A stretch of 64,000 bases of DNA from a virus: IMG/VR virus record IMGVR_UViG_3300042259_000159; one strand, 5' to 3'. Positions 464 to 64,000 of this stretch are shown here, piece after piece. Position 1 is the stretch's first letter; every line of letters starts with the position of its first letter. A program made the translations under genes and the position numbers. The notes below the pieces were generated by a model, which saw only the letters and a list, made by a program, of their open reading frames with translations, was not told the DNA's origin and made no database searches.

Positions 464-955
464 CTACCATAAGTAGTTACGGGAGATGTCCTTATAAGAT
501 CTCCGACTACGGATGTCGTCGTAGATATGCTTAGGTATCCCCATAAGGTCTCGAATTTCCTTTGCAGAGTGTCTGCCATCGGCAATCATCTGGCAAATTC
601 TATGCACCTTGTCATCAGGGAGTGTGCTATGTGGACGCTTGCACAACTTGTTCTTGAATGCGTGCTTCCGATTTTCAGATGGCGTCACCCACTCAAGATT
701 GTTCTTGTGGTTATCAATCTTAATCCCATTCTTATGATTGACAACTTTGCCTTCTTCGTAGCCTTGCACATATGTGTAAGCCACAAGTTTATGCACAAAG
801 ATACGAAGAGTCTTTCCTTCAGAGGAGAGGGTTACTCGCTTGTAACCTGTTCTATTAAGGTCAGTGCGCAACACTCTTCCTGTTTCTGAATTTAAGACAA
901 CACCCTCTTCATTAACGAGGTACTTTTCAAAACCTTTTATTGCGACTGGTCTCAC
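464..955 (-). CDS. HNH homing endonuclease
   Basis: Motif NHKNGIKIDNHKNNLEWVTPSENRKHA (HNH_3-like) with a NUMOD4-like N-terminus. GTG start preceded by AAGGAG. Lies inside the putative intron. Confidence 0.8.
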   Translation of the reverse strand: MRPVAIKGFEKYLVNEEGVVLNSETGRVLRTDLNRTGYKRVTLSSEGKTLRIFVHKLVAYTYVQGYEEGKVVNHKNGIKIDNHKNNLEWVTPSENRKHAFKNKLCKRPHSTLPDDKVHRICQMIADGRHSAKEIRDLMGIPKHIYDDIRSRRSYKDISRNYLW

Positions 956-1041
956 ACCTAATCTCCTTATAGTAGCTTGGCTCAGGATTGTCTCTGAGAG
1001 AGTTCCCCTGAATTCACACAGTTTTACGCGGGCATCAATTT

Positions 1042-2010
1042 ACCCGCCCCGAAGTAGAAGGTCTCTCCTAGTCTTCGTCCTCTTGTGGCTTTTGTCAGGC
1101 CAAGCCAAGGCCACGGCCTTCCGTATTCGGGCTTAGTTCTTGCTTTTTCTTTTAAGGTAGAACCCTTGACGATACGGGTGTTCTTTGGGACTACAGTCTT
1201 CCACTTGGTGGCTTGCAGACACTCCGCTACCTTCCCTTCGAGGAGACAGTCATTAACATCCTTACACGGAAGCTCAGCAACATGCCCTCCGGGGAAGATA
1301 CGAACAAACTCTTCTGCTGCTTTCTGACCGGGTTCGTCCATGTCAGGGACGTACACTACCTTCTCAAACAGCTGACGAATCTTGTTTGCATGTTGGAGAA
1401 CAGCCTTCTGCACACTTCCTGCTCCTGAAGGAAGGCTCACAACAGCAGGAATGAGATGTTTGTATTGGGTGTTTGCTACGCTATCCCTGAGCATTTGATA
1501 CAAAGACATTGCATCAATCTCACCTTCGGTGATGTACAGAGTCTTTGCTCCAGCTGTGATAGCTTGTTTCCAACCAAAGAACGAAGCCCCTTTCAAAGAG
1601 CCTATAGCCCACATCCTCTTATCTTTCAGGATTCGTGCTTTATAAGCAGTGAGCTGCCCTCCTTCATCCGTGTAAGGAAAGAATACGATGTCAGGAGTAG
1701 AGCCATCCATAGGTGAGACACCTACTTTGACATTGAAATGCTCAAGGGTTTCTTTCCTCAGCTTTCTTGAAGGAAGAGGATGAGAGAGAAGACTAATTAT
1801 GTGTTTAATTTCTTCGTCTATCTCTTCCTTCGTCTTTTTAGCCACTACAGGAGTGTAGCCTTCAGGTTTGTCCTTATAGGGGTCAGGGACATATTTTCCA
1901 CAAGAGAAACAGTAGCCATCATAGCTGCCATCTTCTTGTAAAAACACTTGTAAACCTGAAGCTGTTCCACAAGAGTGAGGCAATTTTTCTACGCATACTC
2001 CTCGTTTCAT
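1042..2010 (-). CDS. T7 gp4-like DNA primase-helicase, exon 1 (Zn-ribbon plus TOPRIM; helicase domain cut off)
   Basis: Cys cluster HSCG...CFSCGKY, TOPRIM motifs YITEGEIDAMSLYQ and VPDMDEPGQKAA, and the start of a helicase domain (GLTKATRGRRLGETFYFGAG). The track ORF is 1024..2010; the exon end is inferred. Confidence 0.7.
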
Positions 2011-9783: not shown

Positions 9784-10050
9784 CTATTCCCAGCGACCAC
9801 GGTAGTCAGGTGTATTGTATGCTGCTCTTATGTACGCTACTATTCCATCGAACACGTCTTTTTTCATTGTTAAAGGGGCAGACAGAGCGTCTATGTATGC
9901 GAGGTTACGCCCGATGCGTTTCACATACTGTTCAGAGTTACAGCATCGGGCAAGGCCAAATGCTACAGCATCCCCTACCTTGCGGTAGAAAACAGTAGCG
10001 CCACCAAACGGATGAAGACGCAATTCACCTTTACGGCTTATGTAGGGCAT
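9784..10050 (-). CDS. hypothetical protein, PFGGATV paralog family member 2
   Basis: HPFGGATVFYR...FGLARCCNSEQYVKRIGRNLA. Confidence 0.55.
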   Translation of the reverse strand: MPYISRKGELRLHPFGGATVFYRKVGDAVAFGLARCCNSEQYVKRIGRNLAYIDALSAPLTMKKDVFDGIVAYIRAAYNTPDYRGRWE

Positions 10051-10069
10051 TGCTCCCTTCTCTTAATTG

Positions 10070-10312
10070 CTACAACACATCACACACACGAGTCCCATTG
10101 TTATAGTAGTATCGGTATTCCCGCACCTTAACAAGTTGTCCTTCCTTGTTAGGTGACATTACACCAATGGAAATGGAAGGAAATATTCCTAGCTCCAATT
10201 CATGCAATGCTACCTTATAAGCGGCGTCGAATGTTGAAAACAATTGGTATCGGTAGGTGTATACGGACATTACACTGTCTTCCAGAATAATTTCATTCCG
10301 CAGACTTTTCAT
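10070..10312 (-). CDS. hypothetical protein
   Basis: ORF track; GAGGAA RBS upstream of the ATG. Confidence 0.4.
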   Translation of the reverse strand: MKSLRNEIILEDSVMSVYTYRYQLFSTFDAAYKVALHELELGIFPSISIGVMSPNKEGQLVKVREYRYYYNNGTRVCDVL

Positions 10313-10428
10313 ATTATTTCCTCACTTTCTTTCATCAATCGATTTGCAATCCCACCGAATGATGATAGTAGCTTATGCTACCAACAAGGGAAGGGGCGAC
10401 GCATAGACGCATCACCCCTTCCCTTGCT

Positions 10429-10797
10429 TTAGAACACCATATCGAGAACCGCCGACACGGCTTTGTTTAGTGTATGGAATCTTGCTTCTTCTTCCATCCT
10501 ATCGCCCGTGATATTCACGAGCACAATGCTATCGAGGTGCGGAAGGAGGGTATAGTCCTCCTCGTTGATAGAAAAGAAAAGCCCTTCCTCGCTTTCATAT
10601 GCGGCGATAAGGCGCTTGGCTACGTCCTGTTTATCCTTCTCCAGCCGGAGACGCTTTACGGCCTCGCTGTTTTCAACGTAGTCATGGCAATCCGTTCCAC
10701 CTTTACGGGCAACGAACGCACCACCGCCACAAGTCAGGGGCTTTCCTTCACCCCACCGGCAAGTCTGGCAATATTGTGTGTTTTGCATAGCAGTCAC
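10429..10797 (-). CDS. hypothetical protein
   Basis: ORF track; Cys pair YCQTCRW near the N-terminus. Confidence 0.4.
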   Translation of the reverse strand: MTAMQNTQYCQTCRWGEGKPLTCGGGAFVARKGGTDCHDYVENSEAVKRLRLEKDKQDVAKRLIAAYESEEGLFFSINEEDYTLLPHLDSIVLVNITGDRMEEEARFHTLNKAVSAVLDMVF

Positions 10798-10866
10798 TAC
10801 TCCATTGGTTATGGTTCATCACATAATTGCAAGCCCTATTGCTAGGGCCTGCTATATGGGACGAAG

Positions 10867-11532
10867 CTAATCAAGGGAAATGCCGCAATCAAATGCGAGG
10901 CTTTTCACACGGTCGAGAAATTCTTTCATATTGTCCTCGGGAATGTATTGTCCCTCGGCCAGTTTTTTCAAGTCAGACTTGATTGCATTGACTGCTTTTC
11001 CCTTGTACGGTTTTTCAGGCTTGGCAGGATTAAAATCATACCATGACTGAGCCGCGAGGCGGGCTTTCACGCTCATGACATTAAAAGACTTGGCGATAAG
11101 CTTCCCTTTTTTGTACGGTTCGCCGTTCGGATCGAGAAGCGTTTCACCGTCCGCTTTCTCCTTCGCCGTTTCGAATTTCCCCTTTTTCATATTCCAGCGT
11201 ATAGCGGACGCGCTTGCGTCCAGAACCGGCTTGTTGTCCTTATCGTATTGTATGGGACCGTCGCAGAATACCCATAACATATAGTTTTGTACTGCCGTGA
11301 TGTTAATTGCCCGTGTGCCGCCGATACGTGTCATGAATTCGCTCATAAGGCGGCAACCTACTTCGCCGTCAGTATCTTCCGCCTTCGCCATTACAGCGTC
11401 GACGATAACCGCCTGGACGGCTTCGCGGAAGGACAATGCCATTGCCTCGATATCCGGCATGGCGGCTGCGAACCTTTCAGCATGCTGGCGGACAACAGGA
11501 TTACTAATCTTGCTTGCGTCGAAGTTGCTCAT
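10867..11532 (-). CDS. hypothetical protein
   Basis: ATG at 11532 preceded by GAGGT (MSNFDASK...); the track ORF extends to 11592. Confidence 0.5.
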   Translation of the reverse strand: MSNFDASKISNPVVRQHAERFAAAMPDIEAMALSFREAVQAVIVDAVMAKAEDTDGEVGCRLMSEFMTRIGGTRAINITAVQNYMLWVFCDGPIQYDKDNKPVLDASASAIRWNMKKGKFETAKEKADGETLLDPNGEPYKKGKLIAKSFNVMSVKARLAAQSWYDFNPAKPEKPYKGKAVNAIKSDLKKLAEGQYIPEDNMKEFLDRVKSLAFDCGISLD

Positions 11533-11868
11533 GGTCTTTACCTCACTTACGTTATTTGTTTGTGGTATGAATGAACAAGCCACCTTGCGCATTCAAGCCC
11601 ACAAACAAACAAAACCTTGCTAGGGCTTGTTTGTCTATGGCGCACAAAGCGTCTATCCTACTTTTCGCCATAGTCCATGATGCGCGTTCCCCGATAGCCT
11701 AGGAATAATTTGTCCTTTCTAAGCGAAGAAATACGCGGAACCATGCTACTTTTCGAATATCCGCTTTGCTTTTCGGAGCGGTGGCCCGCTGCAACCACTT
11801 AAGGAGTCTAGACCACGTCACGCCGCTGAATTCTATCAACGGTCTGCGATGTAAGACGGTACGGAACC

Positions 11869-11897
11869 TATATAGGACGGTTACCTATCGGTGTCAA
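11869..11897 (-). promoter_or_regulatory. sigma70-type promoter (TTGACA-N17-TATATA)
   Basis: Minus strand reads ccggTTGACAccgataggtaaccgtccTATATAgg, about 330 nt upstream of 10867..11532. Confidence 0.5.
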
Positions 11898-12502
11898 CCG
11901 GTTTTTTCGTCCGCTTGCCGTACCGTGCCGGTATGCCGCTGATATAGCATACGCCGTGCCAACGTGTGCAACATGTTGAAATATCAGCACTATTTTTTGT
12001 GCCCTGAAACGCTATGCCCTAACCGCTTTATGTAAACCGTTGAAATGACTAGCTTTTCATATAATGCCGGTTAAAAATTTTGTACCGCTTTTCTGCTAGT
12101 GAATGAAAACTATGGCAATGCCGTAATGTAAGCGCCTGATATAATTGGCGGTTTAAAAAATTATACCATTTCAGGCAAAAGTATAAAAAATTGAACCGAC
12201 CATTTTCTTGTATAATGAGACGCGATTGCAATTATTATGCCAAACTGAATGGAACGCCTTGTGCTTATGCAATTGCCATGCCAATTGATATGGCACAATA
12301 AGTGCATAAGCAAGCATTGTGCCAACAAAGTTATCAGCCAGTTTAGCATGAAGCGTGCCATAATGTCATAAGTGAATGATAGCAGCATGATAGCATGGTT
12401 CAGCAATCTGAATATAGAATGTTATGTCTCGTTTATTGATCATTGCATATAAGCAAAATGATCAATAAGAGAGACAATATTATATAATAAGTATATACTT
12501 GT

Positions 12503-12527
12503 GTCGAGCGTAAGCGAGACGATATAA
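12503..12527 (+). repeat. direct repeat GTCGAGCGTA(A)GCGAGACGATATAA, copy 1
   Basis: Second copy at 12821..12844 differs by a 1-nt indel. Confidence 0.8.
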
Positions 12528-12618
12528 TACTATATAGAATACACGTAAGTGCCCATAATGATTGGACTATAGGTGAATGAGTAGTTGAAACATGATAGCA
12601 GTAGGGTAATGACCTATA

Positions 12619-12668
12619 TATGCCGTAGGCGATATAGGATACCAGATAAATATGCCGTAGGCGATATA
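12619..12668 (+). repeat. tandem pair of TATGCCGTAGGCGATATA (18 bp, 14-bp spacer)
   Basis: Identical 18-mers at 12619..12636 and 12651..12668. Confidence 0.85.
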
Positions 12669-12820
12669 ATATTCCCTAACCGATATAGATTTACAGGGGG
12701 GTAGTAGGGGGTGAGGGGGTGTCCTTTTGGATGCACTACCCCTTAAAAATTTCTCATAGAAATTATCGCCCCAGCCAAAAATATTTTCTCCAATTCCCCC
12801 GCACATTTACACACAAATAT

Positions 12821-12844
12821 GTCGAGCGTAGCGAGACGATATAA
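12821..12844 (+). repeat. direct repeat GTCGAGCGTAGCGAGACGATATAA, copy 2
   Basis: See 12503..12527. Confidence 0.8.
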
Positions 12845-13057
12845 AAATATTTTGTCACACTTTTGATTTTCTTACGTATATACATATAGGGGGATAAGGG
12901 GGGAAGAGGAATAAGTATTATAACGAAAGAAGAAGAAGAAGAAATAAGATGGTAGATATATAAAGGGGAGGGCTCTGCTAAGAAAGCAGCCCTCCCCTTA
13001 TAAGAAATAGATGAGGAAGAGAGAGGCTAACATAACAAAGGAAAAGTAGGAGAGAAG

Positions 13058-14956
13058 ATGGCTAAGATAAACATTCCTAATATTTCTTCTCCTTATGCGT
13101 CTCAGAATGCTTTGAATGAAAGATTCAAGATGATTGAGGACGTATTGAATGACAAGGTGTTGTGGAGAGACAACCCTATCGGAGAAGTGAACACGTTAAA
13201 GAATGACATAGACCTAGGCAACAACGACCTGCTTAATGTAGGCTTAGTTAGTGCTTCGTCTATTATGGTGCAGGGGCAGGGGCTAGAAGAAGGCATTACA
13301 GAAGCCTTGTCTCGTTGTACTGAAAAGGCTGACGAGGCTGAGGCTTCTGCTAATGCAGCTGCTGCTAATGCAGCCAGTGCTGAGGCTTCTGCTATTAGGG
13401 CGGAGGCTGCTGCGTCTCAAGTTGACCTGCCTGCCGTCTCCCCCGGAGATGAGGGGAAAGTTCTTACAGTTTCTCCTTCGTTAGAGAAGGAGTGGGCAGA
13501 GGTGCCTGAGGAGCTCCCTCCTTACAGCGTTGCAGACGAAGGGAAGGTTCTTAAGGTTTCTTCGTTGGGGGAGACAGAGTGGGGGATGGAAGAGAAAGAG
13601 CTTCCTTCCTACACACCGTTGGATGCTGGAAAGACCCTGTCTGTTAACGAAACAGGAAACGCAGTAGAGTGGACAGAGCCTCCTAAAGGGAGTGTTAATA
13701 TTGCTCCACAAACGATAGTGAGGGCTCAAGTGGGTCCTCGTCCCGACGGCTGGACGGCTGCTGACTGTGACGCCCCCGTGCAGAGTATGTCTGCGGAAAG
13801 CGCAGTCATCGTGAATAACGATGTACTCCCGGTGTTCTCTAGCTCTAACAGCAGCGGTGGGATGACGGTGTCAGCGCAGTCCATTTACAGTAGCACCTAC
13901 CCTGTATGGAAAGCGTTCAACAAGCAGGCCGTGAATTATACGGATAGTTGGCAATCAGGAAATGACTTCGCAAGTGACACCGGAGTTGGTAGCAGTTGGA
14001 TTCAAGTTGACATGGGCAGTCAGTTCAATGTGGCGCGTATCGTCCTGTATCCTCGAAATGAAGACGGGACGTTCAACACAAATTTCCCGTATGACTTCGA
14101 TATTGTCATAGACGGCGTGAAGGTGAAAGAGGTCAGAAATGCTATCCCGCCAAGCAGCACTGCGCGAATGGAGTTCGACCTAGATTCTCCGGTAACTGGG
14201 CAGATAGTCCGGTTGGACATTACGAGGACAGGCGGGGCCAGTGTGACTTCACTAGGCCAGTTTTATGTCTATGATGCGGAGGTAGTAAGTGGGAGCGCTC
14301 TTGTACAGATAGCCGCAGGGCTTCAAGTCGCTTACGCAGATGAGGGCAGGGTACAGTTGTCTGATGTTTTAGATTCAGCACATGCAGTTGACCTGTCGGC
14401 AGCGGCGGACGGGACGAGCTACATTTACGCGGATCTCTCGGAGGATGGGGCTTTCTCCGGTTTCGGTGCGACTGCCGTTGCGCCTGAGGTCGGGGCGGAA
14501 AAGGCCGACACATTGGCCGACCACTTCAACCCCGCAGAGGTTGTAATGTACAACGTCGCGGGTTCACCAGTCCGCCGCGTCTACATCGGCACGGCTGAAA
14601 AAGCGTCCGGAGCGATTACGAGTGTTCACTGCTATAGCCTTGGAACAGTAGTCACTATGCCCATAAACAGCGGCAACCCTGTGGCTACGCAGTCCCTTGT
14701 TCTTGATGAACTTCCTTATGCCTACAGCAGGATGATGCAGGTTGAACCGCAGTTGTACGGTGAAGGCATATGGGGCAAAGCTGGATGGATTTATACGTCT
14801 GCTGGCCTCGGTGTGTCGGCCACCGTGCGAAAAGAGGCAATCCGTGTTGTGACAGGCACTGGTCTTACTGCACAGTATGCGTCTATTGGTGGTGACTTTA
14901 ATGCAAACATACCGAGTCCGGCAAAAATCCGCGTCACGGTGCACAGGGGGTACTAA
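13058..14956 (+). CDS. tail fibre / receptor-binding protein with discoidin (F5/8 type C)-like domain
   Basis: The N-terminus (NERFKMIEDVLNDKVLWRD...DIDLGNNDLLNVG) is typical of tail fibre or spike adaptors. Three tandem (D/A)EGKVL.VS...EW repeats. SWIQVDMGSQFNVARIVLYPR resembles a carbohydrate-binding discoidin fold. Confidence 0.6.
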   Translation: MAKINIPNISSPYASQNALNERFKMIEDVLNDKVLWRDNPIGEVNTLKNDIDLGNNDLLNVGLVSASSIMVQGQGLEEGITEALSRCTEKADEAEASANAAAANAASAEASAIRAEAAASQVDLPAVSPGDEGKVLTVSPSLEKEWAEVPEELPPYSVADEGKVLKVSSLGETEWGMEEKELPSYTPLDAGKTLSVNETGNAVEWTEPPKGSVNIAPQTIVRAQVGPRPDGWTAADCDAPVQSMSAESAVIVNNDVLPVFSSSNSSGGMTVSAQSIYSSTYPVWKAFNKQAVNYTDSWQSGNDFASDTGVGSSWIQVDMGSQFNVARIVLYPRNEDGTFNTNFPYDFDIVIDGVKVKEVRNAIPPSSTARMEFDLDSPVTGQIVRLDITRTGGASVTSLGQFYVYDAEVVSGSALVQIAAGLQVAYADEGRVQLSDVLDSAHAVDLSAAADGTSYIYADLSEDGAFSGFGATAVAPEVGAEKADTLADHFNPAEVVMYNVAGSPVRRVYIGTAEKASGAITSVHCYSLGTVVTMPINSGNPVATQSLVLDELPYAYSRMMQVEPQLYGEGIWGKAGWIYTSAGLGVSATVRKEAIRVVTGTGLTAQYASIGGDFNANIPSPAKIRVTVHRGY

Positions 14957-15306
14957 TGGCAATTTACGCAAAAGTAGGCGAGAGCGTGCAATATGTAATG
15001 ACAGAGGCTCAGGCACGGAAAATGCCTGACTTGGTTTTGATGTCAGGGGAGAGACCCTCCCTAGGACATATTGCTCAAGCAGATGGAACATGGTTGGGTC
15101 CAGACAGCATACAAAAACAAATAGAAGCCATCGAAAAAAAGTATAAGACAAAAGAAGATGCTATAAAAGAACGCCTCCTGAATATACGATTATCTGATGG
15201 AACTTCAGAAGAGGCAAGAACCCTTGAAATACAAACGGCGTGGGCAGGAATACAGGCTGCAAAAACACAGGAAATAGAAACAATTTTACTAGGAGGTTTA
15301 GAGTAG
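14956..15306 (+). CDS. hypothetical protein (possible tail-fibre chaperone)
   Basis: Start overlaps the tail-fibre stop (TAATG). The function is inferred from position only. Confidence 0.4.
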   Translation: MAIYAKVGESVQYVMTEAQARKMPDLVLMSGERPSLGHIAQADGTWLGPDSIQKQIEAIEKKYKTKEDAIKERLLNIRLSDGTSEEARTLEIQTAWAGIQAAKTQEIETILLGGLE

Positions 15307-15461
15307 TGCCTACACTTCATTGTTCGGCTTGTGATAGTAAGAATCTTACACAGGAAGGCTTACCAGCTTCAGCCATCAAGTATGGCTATTATAGGTGTTT
15401 AGATTGCGGAAACCTCGTAAGACCTATTGTTATGCCAGACCTTGTAAACGAACCACTATAG
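15306..15461 (+). CDS. small Zn-ribbon protein
   Basis: GTG start overlapping the upstream stop; CSAC...CLDC pairs. Confidence 0.35.
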   Translation: MPTLHCSACDSKNLTQEGLPASAIKYGYYRCLDCGNLVRPIVMPDLVNEPL

Positions 15462-38742: not shown

Positions 38743-38768
38743 AGAGGCACCTATGAGGTGCCTCTTCT
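38743..38768 (+). terminator. rho-independent terminator
   Basis: AGAGGCACCtatgAGGTGCCTCT followed by a T-rich tail. Confidence 0.6.
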
Positions 38769-39136
38769 TATGCCTACTAGCGCCGTTATCAGGGTAACGG
38801 CAGGAATCAGCGGGAAACATGTATATAAGGAAAGAAAAACTAAAAGATAACCTAGGACATACGTAAGAGGTAAAAAGCATTAGAAGGCGCATAAGGGGCA
38901 CTAAATATGCCCCTTATTTGTTTGTGTGTCTAATAGGCTTTGTGTGTGCAAAAAGGCTTGTATAGCGGCTTTATCATGGAAGCCGCGCATACAGGCAAGG
39001 CTTTTAGCACTATATATGCACAGATACGGTGTATCCGTGAATATGGTTAATAATCTCTAAATACCTGCCCGAAAGATATGAAATATCTTGAGGGGGGAAA
39101 CACACAATAATCCTCCTGTCAAGTGTTACTGATTTT

Positions 39137-39273
39137 GAATATCATTATCAATGGAGATATTGTCATTGAACAGCATAACGCTGTTATACACACGGATCAA
39201 TTAATTCCCATCGATCAGCATTTCGCTGGTGCTGCTGGAATCAACACTTGTTGAGATAATGACATCCATTATC
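39137..39273. promoter_or_regulatory. Fur-box-like sites in the non-coding region
   Basis: GATAATGACATCCATTATC (39255-39273) matches the 19-mer at 16/19. GAATATCATTATCAAT lies at 39137-39152. Confidence 0.35.
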
Positions 39274-39302
39274 AATGCTGTTCAATGGCCGTTTTCAACG
39301 GC

Positions 39303-39322
39303 AATGTTTCACGTGAAACATT
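39303..39322. repeat. perfect 20-bp palindrome AATGTTTCACGTGAAACATT
   Basis: Self-complementary by inspection; flanked by hairpin GCCGTTttcAACGGC (39288-39302). Confidence 0.9.
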
Positions 39323-39526
39323 CCTGATCAGAATACTGGCAAGAAACATTGATAACGACAATCTTTATCAACGTATCTGGCGATCCTTTCAGGTTAACAC
39401 AAATCTGGAAGAAAGTAAAGTAATATAAATTTTAATAAGGGGTTGACATCTTCCTGATATTTTGATATTATAGAAAGAGAGGCGTATGGGGAGGGGGGAG
39501 GCCTTAAGCACCGGTATACTTATATA

Positions 39527-39576
39527 CCAAGTACCCCTATAGGTTCATGCCGGATATTTGCCCAAGTACCCCTATA
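39527..39576 (+). repeat. direct repeat CCAAGTACCCCTATA x2
   Basis: Copies at 39527-39541 and 39562-39576. A related TATACCAAGTA occurs at approx 20171. Confidence 0.8.
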
Positions 39577-39967
39577 ATGGTATACCGATATACTTATACA
39601 CACCATATCTGCACACAGAAGGTATAGGGGGATATTTCCTGCTAGGATATTTCCACACAAAAAGGGGGAGTATATGGGAGGGATATTCCTGAAGGGAATA
39701 GATATTTTAGACAGGTATATATATATTATCTCTATGCTATATATACTCTATATATGTATATTCCATATATACATATTTCTTCTTATTCTATTCTTCTATT
39801 TCTACTAATGAGATATATACATATTAGGACAGCATATGCATGTGTCTACATCACATGTAGACACATATATACACATTCCCTTTCCTAACGGACAGCCGTA
39901 TTATAACATATTTTTTGGATTTTGTCAAGAACTTTTTTGTATTTCACATGGAAAATATTTCATACCG

Positions 39968-40085
39968 GCTATTCCTTTTGGGAATAGCCTATTCCATTTT
40001 GGAATAACCATTCCTAGGGGAATAGCCTGTTCCCAGAGGGAACAGACATACCCGAAGGGAATAGATATGCCCATTGGAAATAGCA
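39968..40085. repeat. array of inverted repeats built on GGAATAGC / GCTATTCC
   Basis: GCTATTCCttttgGGAATAGC, CTATTCCattttGGAATAA, CATTCCtaggGGAATAG, CCTGTTCCCagagGGAACAG, GGGAATAGA, GGAAATAGC. Confidence 0.8.
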
Positions 40086-40187
40086 AAAGCCCACACACCT
40101 GTAAAGATATGTGGGCTGATAACATTAACAGTGTTAATAACATTAGCGAAGCTAATAATATTTTATCCTATCAATCAATACCTGTAG

Positions 40188-40418
40188 CTACGTGATCGAG
40201 GCAGAGCACCTGTGGTCGAGGTAGAACACCTTGCCAATGCAGAAGGTATGCCCTTCCTTCATAATGCGGAATGTTGCTTGCATGGGCACATTTACCTCCA
40301 CTACCCACTGGATGCCTTGTTCAGGCCAGAAACTCAAGCTGCCGTTAAACTCAAAAGGCTTTGCTTCACAACCCTTCACAGCGGTATTTATCTCTTCCAT
40401 ACCATCTTCACCAGTCAT
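40188..40418 (-). CDS. hypothetical protein
   Basis: ATGA overlap with the methyltransferase stop. Confidence 0.4.
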   Translation of the reverse strand: MTGEDGMEEINTAVKGCEAKPFEFNGSLSFWPEQGIQWVVEVNVPMQATFRIMKEGHTFCIGKVFYLDHRCSASIT

Positions 40419-48848: not shown

Positions 48849-51800
48849 CTAAATGCTTTTATCTACAAACTTTCTCTGTGGAAAATCAAATTCCCGCCTT
48901 GTTTTATTCCAAGCTTTTACGGGTGTAAAAAACCCAACAACCCTTGTCAGCTGTGTACTTATATCTTCCGAACATATGGGGCATGTACTGAAGGAACCCA
49001 TAGAGACATGGGAGTTGATACACTCAGAGTATACGGTATTAATGGCAAAATGTTCACATCCACAACCCAAAGCAAAACAGATAATTTTCTTGGCCTGCTC
49101 TCTTGTCAGCCTCTGCCCGACAGTGGCATGAACAATCCCCCCGCCTGTTAGGTTTTTAGTATATTCTCCGTCAATTCTGAGCCTGTCCCACAGAGATGCC
49201 TCTTCCCACAAAGGAACAAACTGGTTTGCATAGAGAGGGTATTCTATAAAAGTATCGCCGTGAATGATCTTATCTGCGCTGCAAACTTTTACAGCCATAC
49301 TCTCTGCTGGGATTTGCTCAATGTTGAAGACATATCCTGCGTTCTTCTTGGTATACAATCTAGCTTTTCTGTTAAGAAATGTCAAGATCTTTTTCTTCAA
49401 ATCCCCCTCAACACCGAACCTTTGTTTAAGAACCTTTTCACACTCGTAAAGACCAAGAATACCAAACGTTGAAAAGAGCCTGTTGAGGTCTATCCACCCA
49501 CGCGTTATAAAAGGCTGAAGACCTATTTGTTCAAGGACATGAATCAAGACCTTATGAGCAATCAGAATATCTTTAGCAGCCTCTACACGGTACGTGTATA
49601 TTTTCCAAAAATCATCAATACTCTCGGCCTCAATTGCCATCTTGTTGAAATTAAGAGTAACAACTCTATGGCTCCCGATGCTGGAAAGAACACCGGCACC
49701 GAAAGAATTGGAGGTGGATGCCACATCTAACATCTCTTCATCATTGATCAATCGGCAACAGCTAGCGATCTTTGTGCTCTCAGATGTGAAAATATTGTAG
49801 CGCGAAATGTCTCTATTAAGAAATATTTCCAAACTCTCTTCGTCTGCAAGGATGTAATCATCGCCGTCCTTAGTTTTTGAAATGTTCATCGTGCAAACAG
49901 GGAACCTGTAAGGCATCCCGTTATTTGAGGGATCTCCTTTATCAAAGATGTCTAGGAATATTTCCTGCAATTCAAAAACATAGTCAACACACTCTTCTAT
50001 ATCTACAACACCACCATCTGAAAACATCCACAAAAGATGTTCCTTTATGATGTACCTGAGTTTGTGTTTATCAAACACCGATACATTGGTAAAGGGACTC
50101 TCAACTCCGTCACGACTCAAATGGTTTACGCTGTGAATAAGCTGTTGAAACTCGTTTTCTATCTCTTTCCTCACAGCCTTATCGTTTTTAAGCACATCAA
50201 GGGGAACCTTATTCTTTATCATGAGAAGGTGAGCAACATCTATAAATACAGTACCTATGGCTAGAGCACCAGCAACATGCGATGACATTTGGTGGATTGT
50301 CTCACACAGGGCGGCAATATAACTATTAACTCTTTTTGCCGGTTTAGAGGGCAATACTCCAAAAGTTCTTCCTTCTGTAATGAGATTTGTTGCGTTTAAA
50401 GAATAACAATTATGTTGCACCATTCCGTTTGCATAAAAACGGCCCGTTGCTGTTGTCAAATCATATACGTCTTGAAGCTCCTCTCTAAGCTTTCTTGTAC
50501 TAGGAATGTCTTCAAGATTAAACCTGATGATTTTTACAACCCTGTTGCTTTCGCCCTTGGTGTTTGCTTTTTCATTATACTTATCATAGTCTTCTTTATG
50601 CATCTTCATCTTATCAGAAAGATCAACCATCTTATTCGTACTTGACGGGACAAAGGAAAGGGCATAAATCGAATTAGAAATATCACTCCCTTTTATCCTT
50701 TTTCTAAGGCATCGAATACCTTCAATGCCTCTAAGGACGTCATAAAGTGTGTTTATTACTGCCATAGACTGCAAACAAATCTCCACCCTGCCATTCTTTT
50801 TGTAGGTATATCCGTCCGCGTCTACAAGCCCCGCAACAAGTGCCTCTACAGAATCATTTGTCCAAGAGAGGATGTTCTTAGGAAGAACCTTTGTGAAGCT
50901 ATTTTCTTTGTTCCCGAAACCAAAAAAGGCACTTACAAGAAAATTCATATCATAAGAAGACCAATTAATCTGTCTCTCGACTTTATCACTGGGCTTAAAA
51001 AGATTCGCATCAGGAAACAAGTCTTTTATGATACTATAAATTCTTGAGTTATCAATATCGTTTTGATAAACACTGCAAAGCGTTCCCCCTCTTGTAAATC
51101 TGAAAGAGCCTTTTATGTCCTTACCGTTCATTACGCCATCATCAACACAATACCCTTCAAAGTTCCCATCACCAAGCATAAAGCCAAGAAGGTAGGCCAG
51201 CTTTTCTGGAACAATTATTGTTTTTTCCACGGAGGGCAAACAAGTCTCTGTCAAAACAGCATCCCCAACAGAAAGTTCTGAGGCTATTTTTTCAGTTCCA
51301 TCTTCCATATAGATTGGGTGGTTGTCTGTTACCAAAGCAAAGTGCCCTGCCTCTGTCTGATACAAAGAGAATCCTGTATCCGTTTTATGCTTGATAATAC
51401 GTTGTACAGCAACCCATCCATTGTTTGTATCCCAAACCTCTATATTAACTTTTTCACTCACATTGCAGGCCAACTTACCGGAACGACCTTTTGCGGTGTT
51501 CTTGTTAGTGATGTTCGCACTCACATTATTACGCAGCATTGCTGTTGTAATCTCTAGATCTCTTGTAAGGCCTTTTGTGTTAATTTCCTCATGCGTACCC
51601 CTATTTTCGGAGTGTATTGCAAACATATTGAAAAGCTTTTTAAGAGGAATACAAATAATCTCTCCGTTAATTCTGACAAAAACAGGCGTGTTTCCATAAT
51701 ACGAATATGGAAGGTTTAGCTTCGTGCTGTCGGAGATGGGAAGACTGAAATCCAACATTTCTCCTATAAGCCTTTTAGCCCTCTTCTTGCCGTAGAGTTC

Positions 51801-52184
51801 CTTCATAACACGGTAGAGGAAATCGTACCCTGCAATTTTTTTCTGGGGGGCACTTGCCTCACTCTGTATTCCGGCAATTGTCTTCTCATTCTTATTAGCA
51901 TTGTCATCAATAGAGACATCATTAATGTTTGCATTTAATTGTTTTTGAAACATCTTGAGAAAGTCTGTATTGTCCTGCGAAAGACCATGCAGACGCATAA
52001 GTTTTTCAGCTTTTGTATCAATCTCTTCTTGAGAAAGGGTTGTTTTACGAGAAAGATTCCTTTTCAAAGCCTTAAGCATCTGTTTCCGTGTGTATTCAAT
52101 CTCAGCATCATTTGTAAAAGATGAAGAAAAACCTTTAGCTATGCTATTCAAAGCAGTAAACTCCTTCTTTTGTAAGTTTAACAT
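48849..52184 (-). CDS. nrdD: anaerobic ribonucleoside-triphosphate reductase (class III), intein-containing
   Basis: C-terminal CPICS Zn site and glycyl-radical region TRVVGFFTPVKAWN. Likely start MLNLQKKEF at 52184, overlapping the nrdG 3' end. A 432-aa insert carries intein blocks. Confidence 0.8.
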   Translation of the reverse strand: MLNLQKKEFTALNSIAKGFSSSFTNDAEIEYTRKQMLKALKRNLSRKTTLSQEEIDTKAEKLMRLHGLSQDNTDFLKMFQKQLNANINDVSIDDNANKNEKTIAGIQSEASAPQKKIAGYDFLYRVMKELYGKKRAKRLIGEMLDFSLPISDSTKLNLPYSYYGNTPVFVRINGEIICIPLKKLFNMFAIHSENRGTHEEINTKGLTRDLEITTAMLRNNVSANITNKNTAKGRSGKLACNVSEKVNIEVWDTNNGWVAVQRIIKHKTDTGFSLYQTEAGHFALVTDNHPIYMEDGTEKIASELSVGDAVLTETCLPSVEKTIIVPEKLAYLLGFMLGDGNFEGYCVDDGVMNGKDIKGSFRFTRGGTLCSVYQNDIDNSRIYSIIKDLFPDANLFKPSDKVERQINWSSYDMNFLVSAFFGFGNKENSFTKVLPKNILSWTNDSVEALVAGLVDADGYTYKKNGRVEICLQSMAVINTLYDVLRGIEGIRCLRKRIKGSDISNSIYALSFVPSSTNKMVDLSDKMKMHKEDYDKYNEKANTKGESNRVVKIIRFNLEDIPSTRKLREELQDVYDLTTATGRFYANGMVQHNCYSLNATNLITEGRTFGVLPSKPAKRVNSYIAALCETIHQMSSHVAGALAIGTVFIDVAHLLMIKNKVPLDVLKNDKAVRKEIENEFQQLIHSVNHLSRDGVESPFTNVSVFDKHKLRYIIKEHLLWMFSDGGVVDIEECVDYVFELQEIFLDIFDKGDPSNNGMPYRFPVCTMNISKTKDGDDYILADEESLEIFLNRDISRYNIFTSESTKIASCCRLINDEEMLDVASTSNSFGAGVLSSIGSHRVVTLNFNKMAIEAESIDDFWKIYTYRVEAAKDILIAHKVLIHVLEQIGLQPFITRGWIDLNRLFSTFGILGLYECEKVLKQRFGVEGDLKKKILTFLNRKARLYTKKNAGYVFNIEQIPAESMAVKVCSADKIIHGDTFIEYPLYANQFVPLWEEASLWDRLRIDGEYTKNLTGGGIVHATVGQRLTREQAKKIICFALGCGCEHFAINTVYSECINSHVSMGSFSTCPICSEDISTQLTRVVGFFTPVKAWNKTRREFDFPQRKFVDKSI
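50409..51704 (-). mobile_element. intein with LAGLIDADG homing endonuclease domain inside NrdD
   Basis: Block A SYYGNTPVFV (Ser1), block B LVTDNHPIY, LAGLIDADG motifs LAYLLGFMLGDGNF and LVAGLVDADGYTY, C-terminal FYANGMVQHN followed by extein Cys (CYSLN). Confidence 0.8.
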
Positions 52185-52659
52185 AATTATTATTATAAAG
52201 TTCTTGGTTAGACGAACCAAGTACGAGTTTTGTCCTTTGCCCTTTTGTTGTATCTGACTGGTGCAGTTCTTTTATATACTCTCCTGTTTTTATAAATTTG
52301 AAACCGTTAAGATTAAGGTATTTAACAGTGTCAATATCGTATCCAGTATAAATACATATGTTAAAACACCCACCGTATTGTTCTAAGAACTGTGCTGTAA
52401 ACCCTCTGTTGCAGGAGGCTAGCGGATCTCCACCAAGAAGTACAATATTATTTGTGCGGTATTTTAAGGTCTCCTGTTTACAATGGTTGTAGAAGTCTTC
52501 AATGGAAAATTCCACACCACCCTGATATTCAGGGTTTTGCAGGGAGGGGTTATGACACCCCTTACAGGAAAAATCACACCCACACATAAAAAGACTTACT
52601 GCCCACCCATCCTTTGAGGGGTAGTCTGTAAATGTCATCTCAGAACCTGCAAATCTCAT
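52144..52659 (-). CDS. nrdG: anaerobic RNR activating enzyme (radical SAM)
   Basis: CGCDFSCKGCHNP (CxxxCxxC cluster). Confidence 0.8.
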   Translation of the reverse strand: MRFAGSEMTFTDYPSKDGWAVSLFMCGCDFSCKGCHNPSLQNPEYQGGVEFSIEDFYNHCKQETLKYRTNNIVLLGGDPLASCNRGFTAQFLEQYGGCFNICIYTGYDIDTVKYLNLNGFKFIKTGEYIKELHQSDTTKGQRTKLVLGSSNQELYNNNYVKLTKEGVYCFE

Positions 52660-55122: not shown

Positions 55123-55206
55123 TGGTAGGAGAAGAGAGATTCGAACTCTCAAGGAATAATCCGTCGAGGCTTAAACTCGATGTGTTTACCATTTCACCAT
55201 TCTCCC
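55123..55206 (-). tRNA. tRNA-Leu (anticodon UAA), type II with long variable arm, CCA encoded
   Basis: GGGAGAA/TTCTCCT acceptor, anticodon arm TCGAG-TTTAAGC-CTCGA, T-arm GAGAG-TTCGAAT-CTCTC. Confidence 0.75.
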
Positions 55207-55245
55207 GTATTTTTTATCTACCATTCCGCCATTCCCGCATTTATT

Positions 55246-55323
55246 TGGTACCCACTGTGAGATTCGAACCCACACTAATCAGTTTCTAAGACTGATGCCT
55301 CTGCCAAGTTGGGCTATACCAGT
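55246..55323 (-). tRNA. chimeric / possibly defective tRNA (anticodon UAG, short variable loop)
   Basis: Good D, anticodon (TCAGT-CTTAGAA-ACTGA) and T arms. However, 5' acceptor ACTGGTA pairs poorly with the local 3' strand AGTGGGT and well with TGCCAGT at 54617..54646. Confidence 0.45.
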
Positions 55324-55581
55324 ATTATGCTTATTATTTTATTTTGAAAGGCCATATGTATACACATATATATATATACATATATATATGTATAGAGCAA
55401 CCAAAATGGTTAAATAAAAAGGTGTTTTGTGGAGACACCAAACTCCTCCAGTTTTAGTGATCTGGAAACAATAAGCGGCGCAGGTGCTCTTTAAAACACG
55501 TGCTACCAAGCGTATAAATTGTCTAGGGGATTTCACCAAACACATTATGTTATTGGAGGGATCTTTCCCTAGACTCAGTAA

Positions 55582-55654
55582 AGCTCCTGACAGGACTTGA
55601 ACCCGCAACCGGCTGATTACAAATCAGCTGCTCTGCCAGTTGAGCTACAGGAGC
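55582..55654 (-). tRNA. tRNA-Thr (anticodon UGU), no encoded CCA
   Basis: GCTCCTG/CAGGAGC acceptor, GCTGA-TTTGTAA-TCAGC. Confidence 0.8.
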
Positions 55655-55658
55655 AGAA

Positions 55659-55730
55659 CAGAGGGAGAAGGATTCGAACCTTCGAATGACGGGACCAAAA
55701 CCCGTTGCCTTACCGCTTGGCTACCCCTCT
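55659..55730 (-). tRNA. tRNA-Gln (anticodon UUG), no encoded CCA
   Basis: ACGGG-TTTTGGT-CCCGT anticodon arm, T-arm GAAGG-TTCGAAT-CCTTC. Confidence 0.75.
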
Positions 55731-55738
55731 AAATTTTT

Positions 55739-55815
55739 TGGCTCCGGCGGCAGGATTTGAACCTACATTCGCAATGGTTAACAGCCATTTGCCTTACCAA
55801 TTCGGCGACACCGGA
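55739..55815 (-). tRNA. tRNA-Asn (anticodon GUU), CCA encoded
   Basis: AATGG-CTGTTAA-CCATT, TTCAAAT T-loop, acceptor TCCGGTG/CGCCGGA. Confidence 0.75.
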
Positions 55816-55860
55816 ATGAACTTTTTATTTGTTATCAGCATTGTTTTGCTTTATTTTAAA

Positions 55861-55939
55861 TGGTCTCGGTGATTAGATTTGAACTAATGATTATTCCTGC
55901 TCCCAAAGCAGGTGCCATACCAAGCTAGGCGACACCGAG
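55861..55939 (-). tRNA. tRNA-Pro (anticodon UGG), CCA encoded
   Basis: CCTGC-TTTGGGA-GCAGG, T-arm ATTAG-TTCAAAT-CTAAT, acceptor CTCGGTG/CACCGAG. The variable region is slightly long. Confidence 0.65.
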
Positions 55940-58022: not shown

Positions 58023-58109
58023 TGGTGCCCAATGCAGGACTCGAACCTGCACGCCATTTCAGGCAGGAGGGCTTAAACCTCGTGTGTCTACCAATTCCAC
58101 CAATCGGGC
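58023..58109 (-). tRNA. tRNA-Leu (anticodon UAA), type II, CCA encoded
   Basis: Close to E. coli leuZ-type layout: GCCCGAT..GTGGAATTGGTAGACAC..TTTAAGC..TGCAGGTTCGAGTCCTGCATTGGGCACCA. Confidence 0.8.
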
Positions 58110-58118
58110 TAAAATCTT

Positions 58119-58202
58119 TGGTGCCTCAGACAGGATTCGAACCTGCACGGATCTCTCCACTTGGTCCTAAGCCAAGCGTGTCTGCCATTCCACCACTGAG
58201 GC
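58119..58202 (-). tRNA. tRNA-Leu (anticodon UAG), type II, CCA encoded
   Basis: GCCTCAG acceptor, CTTGG-CTTAGGA-CCAAG, long variable arm, GCAGGTTCGAATCCTGT. Confidence 0.8.
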
Positions 58203-59551: not shown

Positions 59552-59808
59552 GTTGTCTCCTTTATTTCTTCAATAAGTGTTTCCAGGTCTGAACACTCCT
59601 GCTCAAGTGCCTTGTGCAGTGCTTTATTCTCATGAGCACCTTGCATTTCCGAGTACAGCCGCCCGAGCAACGATGCTTCCAAGTATGGCAAAACCCTTTT
59701 CAACAGTTCACCTCGCAACAAATTTTCAGTAACCTGCTTTTCTTGGTGGTTCTTCATCAGGCAAGAACCGCAAATAATATTCTCGCTGTGGTTACAGGAC
59801 GTTATCAT
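59548..59808 (-). CDS. hypothetical protein
   Basis: ORF track; overlap-coupled. Confidence 0.45.
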   Translation of the reverse strand: MITSCNHSENIICGSCLMKNHQEKQVTENLLRGELLKRVLPYLEASLLGRLYSEMQGAHENKALHKALEQECSDLETLIEEIKETT

Positions 59809-63082: not shown

Positions 63083-63368
63083 AACATTTTGGGTGCCGCA
63101 GGTTCGGGAAAGTCATACATAATGAATATGATACCTTTGAGGTATGTCGATTGCCCCAACTTTAGGGGGATTGTCTTCCGAAGGGAAACGACACAGCTTA
63201 CAGGTGAAGGGGGGATGTGGGATACAGCAACGGAGATATACTCTGAGCTGCCTAAAAATATCAGGCCCAAAATATTGAAACATAACCTGAGAATGATTTT
63301 TCCGAATGGGGCAAAAATTAAGTTTTCACACATGGAAAATGATAATGATTTCAGGAAACATCAAGGGT
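63083..63368 (+). CDS. terL: terminase large subunit, exon 2 (Walker A)
   Basis: NILGAAGSGKSYIMN...GIVFRRETTQL...KFSHMENDNDFRKHQG. Confidence 0.7.
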
Positions 63369-63622
63369 TAATTAGTAGCCCCTTGTGTTGGTGACAGCGC
63401 AAGCAAACTAACCTAATTCGGTGGAAGCCCAAACATGTAGGATGTGGGTGATACCGAGCAAGCCACGGCGTGTGTAACGACTAGTTCTTAGGAACGTAGG
63501 CCCAAGCGGGTCGAAACGGTTAGCATCTTATTAAGATGAAGATATAGTCTACTCTGCATGGAAACATGCAGCGGACACTTTATGTGTCGGGCAGATGTTA
63601 GCGCCATCTGTTGAATATTATG
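63369..63622 (+). ncRNA. group I intron 2 in terL (ORF-less, approx 254 nt)
   Basis: GTAACGACTAGTTC...GAAGATATAGTCTAC (compare canonical AGATATAGTC), CTGCATGgaaaCATGCAG, CAGATG..CATCTG. U before the 5' junction and G before the 3' junction. Confidence 0.65.
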
Positions 63623-63739
63623 TACAATATACCCTGATATGCTTTGATGAGGCAACACATTTCACTTTCCAACAAGTTGAATACTTAATGTCACGTATGA
63701 GAAGTAAAAGTAAGTATGCTTCTCGTATGGTTCTGTCGT
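63623..63739 (+). CDS. terL: terminase large subunit, exon 3 (Walker B)
   Basis: (L)QYTLICFDEATHFTFQQVEYLMSRMRSKSKYASRMVLS; the 3' end is approximate. Confidence 0.65.
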
Positions 63740-64000
63740 GGATTACGCGACATGTATGGCGAAAGCTGTACTGGCAACTGTGTGAACTCAGGGAAACCTT
63801 AGCTGCTGCAATTGGGCAGAGGAAGAAGGCAATCCTGAGCGAAGCCTTCCCACCGGGAAGGAACGTGCAACGACCATCGAAAGCGTAACACCTGTTACAG
63901 TGAGTAGAGTACACCACACATGTGTGGTGGAAGCGCACAGCCCCTAACATGTAACGATGAGGGTGAAGATATGGTCTGAACCTACAGAAATGTAGAAAAA
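63740..64000 (+). ncRNA. group I intron 3 in terL (runs off right edge)
   Basis: CAACGACCATCG...GAAGATATGGTCTGA, with GACCA/TGGTC replacing the GACTA/TAGTC of introns 1 and 2. Hairpin CCTACAgaaaTGTAG(G). Confidence 0.55.

Follow-up and report, generated by a model that had tools for sequence, protein, structure and literature searches.

The 64,000 nucleotides (nt) of viral DNA considered here (the window; IMG/VR record IMGVR_UViG_3300042259_000159) include a stretch of 1525 nt, from position 11,533 to 13,057, that is free of plausible open reading frames (ORFs) and separates two sets of genes pointing away from each other. To its left, the first of the early genes starts at 11532 on the minus strand; to its right, the tail-fibre gene (13058..14956, plus strand), which is the first of the structural operon, begins with the ATG at 13058. 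Within the stretch, going from left to right, there are a long leader of the early operon, an AT-rich block with promoter-like sites, short direct repeats, an element of about 80 nt (12688..12771, plus strand) and the leader of the structural operon. This element, defined by alignments and profile matches, is the sole part of the stretch conserved beyond this phage, and in four relatives it spans a mapped boundary of the terminal repeat. The stretch is probably the concatemer-junction region, i.e., the region where the two genome ends are joined, of a Zobellviridae-like podovirus of about 47 kb.

The absence of genes was established by several tests. Stop codons of all three kinds (TAA, TAG and TGA) are frequent in six of six frames, and reassignment of any single stop opens a frame of at most 147 codons, which rules out an alternative genetic code or a hidden long ORF. 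Neither a transfer RNA (tRNA) nor a transfer-messenger RNA was detected within the 1525 nt. The covariance models of Rfam 15 gave zero matches in the stretch at the gathering score and, at relaxed thresholds, best matches with E values of 0.5–5, far under the family cut-offs. The gene caller of the Joint Genome Institute (JGI) calls one ORF of 79 amino acids on the minus strand (12567–12806), spanning the conserved element; because no frame is kept there in relatives, it is very probably not a gene. The original prediction, made from the sequence alone, had described the region as holding only implausible ORFs and had named small translated genes as the finding that would overturn it.

When the stretch was compared by BLAST with 50,697 phage records, there was a single match, of 70 nt around the G-tract. 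The element is 83% identical over 70 nt to PQ867851, an oyster-associated Zobellviridae genome, and shorter BLAST queries gave additional matches in Pseudomonas PA11-like phages and in a second oyster phage. Strict DNA patterns of the element recovered the source contig alone from IMG/VR, and a looser, degenerate pattern recovered one further contig. Altogether the element is present, at one copy per genome, in about 17 other phage lineages. The shared core comprises three G-runs (AGGGG..GGGGGT..GGGG), about 10–15 nt, TGCA, two to three bases, ACCCCTTAA, TTTCT, and the palindrome AATTTCTnnnAGAAATT, and can be summarised as three G-runs, TGCA, N14, TTTCT and the palindrome. In the window, the G-runs are at 12696–12719, TGCA is at 12732–12735 and is followed by ACCCCTTAA, TTTCT is at 12750–12754, and the palindrome, here AATTTCTCATAGAAATT, is at 12748–12764.

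Copy number and placement of the element are constant. It occurs once in the 64-kb window (profile E value 2e-19; the next match in the window has an E value of 2.3). With an extended profile, it was found once in the complete genome of PP21, once in PQ867843 (E value 1.8e-8), and once in the complete genome of ICBM1, where its G-rich half is in addition repeated in the left terminal repeat. An alignment of five family terminases was used to retrieve IMG/VR loci around Zobell-type terminases, and among the best 80 of more than 558 such loci the extended profile also detected the element in seven; each time it precedes the terminase and shares its strand, i.e., that of the structural operon. 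No covariation was seen in the element, its folds are ordinary on either strand (z-scores of −1.7 to +1.5 relative to shuffled sequences), every frame across it is interrupted in PP21 and in ICBM1, and elsewhere neither the frame nor the strand is consistent. Thus, the element is conserved as DNA, and neither as protein nor as folded RNA. Two further readings of it were rejected: as a G-quadruplex, as only three G-runs are shared by all and a fourth is confined to some relatives, and as a sigma-54 promoter, as the spacing is wrong.

In the group of phages concerned, short direct terminal repeats with a conserved, G+C-rich end have been reported, a sequence of SIO1 matching the repeats lies in an ORF-free region between two gene modules, and T7-like concatemer replication and packaging have been inferred (Bischoff et al. 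2019, PMC6775973). Five relatives have termini annotated from experiment, with terminal repeats of 121 bp (Pseudoalteromonas phage RIO-1), 138 bp (Vibrio phage VpV262), 172 bp (Lentibacter phage ICBM1), 159 bp (Lentibacter phage ICBM2) and 711 bp (Klebsiella phage Klyazma, checked by Sanger sequencing). When the ends are joined, the order is the same in all five: early genes, 0.6–1.1 kb without ORFs, the repeat, 250–320 nt, and the first structural gene. A profile of the element built from the window and six unmapped relatives only matched at the repeat junctions of ICBM1 (E value 3e-9), Klyazma (5.5e-8), ICBM2 (2e-6) and RIO-1 (0.015). The match straddles the boundary in RIO-1, ICBM1 and ICBM2, with the G-runs inside the repeat and the TTTCT/palindrome half outside; VpV262 has retained the outer half of the element only. 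In all four of RIO-1, VpV262, ICBM1 and ICBM2, the repeat ends 12–14 nt ahead of TTTCT. Transfer of this register to the window gives a predicted end of the terminal repeat after 12735–12737, with the repeat extending leftwards. The G tract at 12697–12719, read from the sequence on the plus strand and already pointed out in the original prediction, would then lie inside the repeat, as probably would the 18-mer repeats described below; short tandem repeats can be seen by eye within the mapped terminal repeats of ICBM2 and RIO-1.

The surroundings of the element are those of the family. Every Zobellviridae member examined has 0.9–1.9 kb of ORF-free DNA, flanked by an early/replication module that runs leftwards and a tail/structural operon that runs rightwards. 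This layout is shared with twelve relatives: PQ867851, PQ867840, PP21, FBPa8, HHBS10_2 and one IMG/VR contig, all six of which have a rightward tail gene with a homologous N-terminus, together with RIO-1, VpV262, ICBM1, ICBM2, Klyazma and PQ867843. In those relatives that match the element, the match lies inside 1.5–2 kb without ORFs, with small leftward early genes on one side and a rightward tail gene on the other; the ORF-free stretch of Klyazma measures 1509 nt. Compared with the junctions of RIO-1, VpV262, ICBM1, ICBM2 and Klyazma, the window has the same order of genes, ORF-free DNA, repeat and leader. The likeness to the Zobellviridae includes the homologous G-run/TGCA/N14/TTTCT element, the N-terminus of the tail protein, DNA polymerase A, the sigma factor and the amidoligase cluster; the rest of the stretch is unrelated in sequence to their junctions, and their ends have been mapped, whereas those of this phage are predicted.

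The tail-fibre protein consists of a Zobellviridae-type N-terminal anchor (residues 1–48 are about 48% identical to those of ICP2-type phages) and an exchangeable C-terminal part. Its close relatives (loci L003–L009) share the C-terminal part only and are preceded by a further large tail gene; hence, they provide no comparison for the noncoding DNA. On the left flank, the 221-amino-acid protein of the early gene (10867–11532, minus strand) has no match in Pfam, in PHROG or, by tblastn, in the phage records.

The arrangement can also be compared with the left end of T7, which has a terminal repetition, short repeats, the early promoters A1–A3 for the host polymerase and an RNase III site before gene 0.3. 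The broad layout, i.e., repeat, short repeats, promoters for the host polymerase and a leader of several hundred nt, corresponds. In contrast to T7, there is no sequence similarity, a sigma factor is carried instead of T7 RNA polymerase, and the early and structural modules are not co-linear but run inward from opposite ends, so that they diverge at the joined junction.

These observations suggest the following scheme. If a linear genome that ends in a short direct repeat were assembled as a circle, its two ends would appear joined in one region. The conserved element would straddle the structural-side boundary of the repeat, where the packaging enzyme, with the element as the sequence recognised by the terminase, would be expected to cut replicated concatemers, leaving the ends of the virion DNA. 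The repeat would run leftwards from about 12735–12737 across the G-tract and probably the 18-mers. Positions 12738–13057 would be the unique leader of the structural operon, with the palindrome, purine tracts, a hairpin and a Shine-Dalgarno sequence; positions 11870–12560 would be an early control region beside the other genome end, AT-rich, with leftward sigma-70-like promoters, some of which may fire, and an array of sigma-54-consensus sites; and positions 11533–11868 would form a long, highly structured leader ahead of the first early gene. Read in this way, the stretch is an ordinary, family-typical genome-end junction with an early control region, and the phage is a new member of a family already known. 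The original prediction had suggested regulatory, origin or terminus functions. The terminus is supported by homology to the mapped terminal-repeat junctions of Zobellviridae, and a regulatory role by the leftward promoters, the long structured leader and the family-conserved layout; an origin, in a region with no DnaA boxes, is unsupported. Thus, the region was seen correctly at the outset and the guess at its function was partly right.

Several points count against a genome-end junction. The ends of this phage are predicted from homology, and contigs from several samples cross the region uninterrupted. Of the two boundaries of the repeat, the prediction covers only the one on the structural side. 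Outside the 70 nt of the element, the noncoding DNA matches no other phage record searched, and in contigs from other samples it is 100% identical, so that it holds no polymorphism or comparative signal. In Klyazma, the 711-bp repeat stops 44 nt before the element; the cut is, therefore, not always inside it. The Zobell-type terminase of this phage is not among the best 80 of more than 558 terminase loci, and the sole terminase seen in the window is of an intron-split Terminase_6N type, which appears to belong to another part of the window (see below). Finally, the position of the element fits a sole promoter of the structural operon equally well.

This last point leads to the alternative that survives best: the element may serve mainly as promoter or operator for late transcription of the structural operon, recognised by host RNA polymerase with a phage sigma factor or bound at the palindrome AATTTCTnnnAGAAATT by a dimeric regulator, and its overlap with the repeat boundary a by-product of compact layout. 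It lies 40–350 nt upstream of the first structural gene, invariably on the strand of that gene; a single long structural operon could be served by one promoter; and in Klyazma the element is wholly outside the repeat. A sigma factor is annotated beside the DNA polymerase of relatives and a candidate exists in this phage, and a phage sigma factor common to the family would account for conservation among phages of such different hosts (Pseudomonas, Klebsiella, Vibrio and Lentibacter). However, the most invariant bases (ACCCCTTAA, and the G-runs 20–50 nt upstream) are where spacers and upstream sequences of promoters normally vary; across four genera the boundary of the repeat shifts by no more than 2 nt relative to the element, a constancy not predicted by a promoter alone; and ICBM1 and PP21 have no second copy before any other late gene. 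Possible as it is, this alternative is somewhat doubtful as the main role; it is compatible with a genome-end junction, as the element could double as promoter or operator.

An origin of replication appears unlikely. It would have the direct repeats as iterons and the AT-rich block as the site of unwinding, possibly activated by transcription; two exact and one degenerate 18-mer do lie in one orientation and adjoin a 510-bp block of 35% GC with several promoters, and in the relative PQ867843 the equivalent region contains a pair of perfect DnaA boxes. Here, there are zero DnaA boxes even when one mismatch is allowed, there are merely two or three repeats, conserved in no relative, and no initiator gene was identified, the neighbouring 221-amino-acid protein being without family match or homologue in the phage records. 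The GC skew turns at the stretch, but it tracks gene orientation throughout the window. The boxes of PQ867843 (locus L043; TTATCCACA) are about 50 nt apart on the minus strand of its ORF-free region, at approximately 9,890–9,950 of the record, which hints that at least this phage, the closest annotated relative, places an origin beside its genome end. A structured noncoding RNA, or small proteins overlooked by the ORF rules, is very improbable: the structure of the early leader and the 79-amino-acid ORF called by JGI speak for it, whereas the lack of Rfam matches, of covariation or unusual folding in the element, of a consistent frame across it and of any long frame opened by stop reassignment speaks against it, as does the fact that the leader structure is not conserved in sequence in relatives.

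If the stretch is indeed a genome-end junction, the element has a practical use: in metagenomic contigs of Zobellviridae-like phages, it is a landmark for opening the linear genome and identifies the first structural gene. The earlier observation in cobaviruses of a conserved, G+C-rich repeat end is thereby extended to lineages from Pseudomonas, Klebsiella and Vibrio and to uncultured ones; the new addition is the conserved TGCA-N14-TTTCT/palindrome half, which lies outside the repeat.

The early side of the stretch contains sigma-70-type promoters, all on the minus strand and facing the early genes. The promoter which the original prediction described as a consensus one, TTGACA-17-TATATA at 11897..11869 (read directly from the reverse complement), is present and is followed by a leader of about 330 nt up to the ATG at 11532, but it matches in 11 of 12 positions rather than perfectly; a promoter scan missed it since the last base of the −10 box is A. 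The scan itself called TTTATA-16-TATAAT with a TG extension at 12187..12160 and TCGACA-17-TATAAT (11/12) at 12507..12479. The total number of sigma-70-like sites is not above that in shuffled sequences. A GAGG motif lies 9 nt ahead of the ATG at 11532; if the upstream ATG at 11592 called by JGI is real, the leader shortens to about 270 nt. The 338 nt of minus-strand leader fold with −120 kcal/mol, compared with −94.5 ± 5.5 kcal/mol for shuffled sequences (z = −4.7; none of 100 shuffles equalled it). The structure (leader proper 11533..11868, between the promoter at 11897 and the ATG at 11532) includes a hairpin at 11599–11640, found as an inverted repeat, and its sequence is not conserved in any relative. 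RIO-1 has a comparable order of AT-rich block, TTGACA-17-TATTAT promoter and leader of about 500 nt.

A scan of the whole window revealed, in addition, sites resembling the −24/−12 promoters of sigma-54 (RpoN). Five on the minus strand match YTGGCAY-N5-TTGCW in 10 or 11 of 11 positions. One (TGGCACGGCGTATGCTA, 10/11) is at 11946..11961. The other four form an array (TGGCAY-N5-TTGCW, 12227..12360) with a spacing of 36–41 bp, all facing the early genes: 12242–12227, 12283–12268 and 12324–12309 (each 11/11) and 12360–12345 (10/11). An inverted site is at 12291–12306 on the plus strand. Altogether, three sites of 11/11 and three of 10/11 lie within 415 bp; the former are the only ones of that score in 64 kb, on both strands, and the remaining 62.5 kb contain only two sites scoring at least 10. 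The five minus-strand sites have the exact GG-N10-GC spacing, and their spacers vary while the two boxes are kept. The original prediction had noted numerous short repeats containing (A/G)TGCC. These are indeed enriched, with 14 on the plus strand in 11870–12740 as against 3.6 ± 1.6 in dinucleotide shuffles (the complement occurs once), and five of them are the −24 halves of the minus-strand matches.

Sites of this kind are distributed unevenly among relatives. VpV262 has six at 173–346, starting 35 nt past its left terminal repeat, four of them at a spacing of about 41 bp and facing the early genes; one or two occur in PQ867851 and in the PA11-like phages, and none in RIO-1, ICBM1, ICBM2 or PQ867843. 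Compared with known sigma-54 promoters, the sites differ in being lined up in tandem, about 40 bp apart, and in belonging to the early region of a lytic phage. A literature search, which did not include the original genome papers of VpV262 and RIO-1, found no report of RpoN-type promoter arrays in such a region, and nothing on sigma-54 sites or on the noncoding region in Zobellviridae. A Sigma54-activator domain is absent among the Pfam matches listed for the genes of this phage. The array is, on present sequence comparisons, unexplained and not family-wide. That such a near-perfect array beside the genome end is functional, here and independently in VpV262, seems rather unlikely, but of all the features it is the one that might lead to something new and is worth following up. 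If it were functional, a lytic podovirus lacking an RNA polymerase of its own would drive its earliest transcription via the host RpoN holoenzyme and an undescribed activator. Alternatively, several silent RpoN holoenzymes would be parked on the first DNA to enter the cell, possibly to keep hold of this DNA, to form a roadblock or to sequester sigma-54.

The remaining repeats and blocks of the stretch, which the original prediction had placed accurately, at or near where they occur, and which are non-random, are as follows. The AT-rich block (12050..12560) has 35% GC, compared with 44–48% in its flanks. A repeat search located the 18-mer TATGCCGTAGGCGATATA as an exact pair on the plus strand at 12619–12636 and 12651–12668 (0.03 expected) and as a degenerate third copy, beyond the pair originally noted, at 12670–12687; the 18-mers are candidate protein-binding sites. 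The same search located the 25-mer GTCGAGCGTAAGCGAGACGATATAA at 12503..12527, overlapped at its left end by the promoter at 12507..12479, and its 24-nt second copy at 12821..12844, 86 nt beyond the predicted boundary; the two plus-strand copies are 318 bp apart and bracket the junction element. No such bracketing repeats were found in four relatives. The original prediction had made much depend on whether any repeat was conserved in relatives: the 18-mer and 24-mer repeats belong to this phage alone, whereas the element with the G-tract is conserved. It had also proposed the 24-mer as a promoter for a phage-encoded RNA polymerase, which is not borne out, as there are two copies only, with no other in the remainder of the 64 kb or in a further 21 kb of this phage. 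The ORFs and gene calls that were checked include no candidate for a phage single-subunit RNA polymerase; in its place there is a small sigma-factor candidate, as in relatives, where annotation puts the sigma factor beside the DNA polymerase. Klyazma has likewise been described as a family member without a phage RNA polymerase (Klyazma paper).

Ahead of the tail-fibre gene, a purine-rich tract (GGGGGATAAGGGGGGAAGAGG followed by GAA repeats; read from the sequence) occupies 12889..12945 on the plus strand, and a hairpin with a perfect 12-bp stem occupies 12963..12999, 58 nt before the ATG. The latter is the strong hairpin that the original prediction had described; it lacks a T-run and is not called by a terminator scan. 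The tail-fibre leader folds with a z-score of −2.5, and relatives (loci L010, L012–14 and L016) also have a hairpin in the same relative place before the first structural gene.

As to the genome in which the stretch is found, its coding flanks recur on a 46,990-bp contig from another sample, which ends 34 nt past the stop codon of the tail fibre. This contig encodes a DNA polymerase A 53–56% identical to Zobellviridae polymerases, the small sigma-factor candidate, and an amidoligase/glutamine-amidotransferase cluster as in PQ867843. Judged by these genes, the window from 1 to about 15 kb is part of a Zobellviridae-like podovirus of about 47 kb. At 15.0 kb, the GC content of the window falls from 0.53 to 0.40–0.43, and contigs from other samples are 75% identical across 14,900–15,412 and unrelated beyond. 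In the rest of the window (15–64 kb), primase/helicase, DNA polymerase A and NrdD are each encoded a second time, and the terminase is of a different kind, split by introns; in another sample, this second part is on a separate 70,213-bp contig, which also encodes a portal of Mu type, a capsid protein of lambda type and a tail terminator. The window is thus a probable joining of two phages (at about 14,960–15,450), after a tail-fibre end common to co-occurring phages, to judge from the contigs compared. The join leaves the studied stretch unaffected, because the stretch is contiguous with both Zobell-type flanks in at least five samples. A 91,584-bp IMG/VR contig contains both replication modules and should be flagged as a probable join of two phages, which matters to users of the record; it would end at window position 59,584, and the window reaches 4.4 kb farther. 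The Terminase_6N-type terminase appears to belong to the second part. A contig from the same sample series with a Zobell-type terminase (L077) was considered as part of the first phage and rejected, since there is no overlap.

The tail-fibre end is a recombination hot spot. When window positions 13028–15400 are compared with loci L026–L029, 121 of 121 differences are in the tail-fibre gene and the next gene, and the C-terminal 475 residues of the fibre are common to unrelated contigs (60–89%).

The original prediction had likened the stretch to the region at 38760–40190. There is no sequence homology between the two (the best local alignment has an E value of 0.32); they share 18 10-mers, as against 7 ± 5 in random windows, mostly of TATATA type, and the region at 38.8–40.2 kb falls in the section of the window that appears to come from another phage. 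Within it, at 39960–40080, are six or seven TTCC-N4/5-GGAA palindromes (GGAATAGCC-type) and the direct repeat CCAAGTACCCCTATA, present twice; they resemble an array of protein-binding sites belonging to the second phage and have no sequence relationship with the studied stretch.

Other parts of the window contain several further features. Two group I introns (63359–63571 and 63728–63997, plus strand; Rfam 76–77 bits) split the Terminase_6N-type large terminase, whose exons encode Walker A (GAAGSGKS) and Walker B (CFDEATHF) motifs. The anaerobic ribonucleotide reductase NrdD (48849–52220, minus strand; 1123 amino acids) may carry an intein, as the first half weakly matches an intein splicing domain with 30.3 bits, under the Pfam cut-off of 35.8. 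Eight tRNA genes lie on the minus strand in two clusters (55123–55939 and 58023–58202), with the pair Leu(taa)/Leu(tag) occurring twice. In the Zobell-like part, the primase/helicase is split, its Toprim part (window 1024–2010) being apart from the helicase part, and the gap holds HNH and LAGLIDADG endonuclease ORFs (window 464–955 and, past the left edge, 10001–13032 of locus L021).

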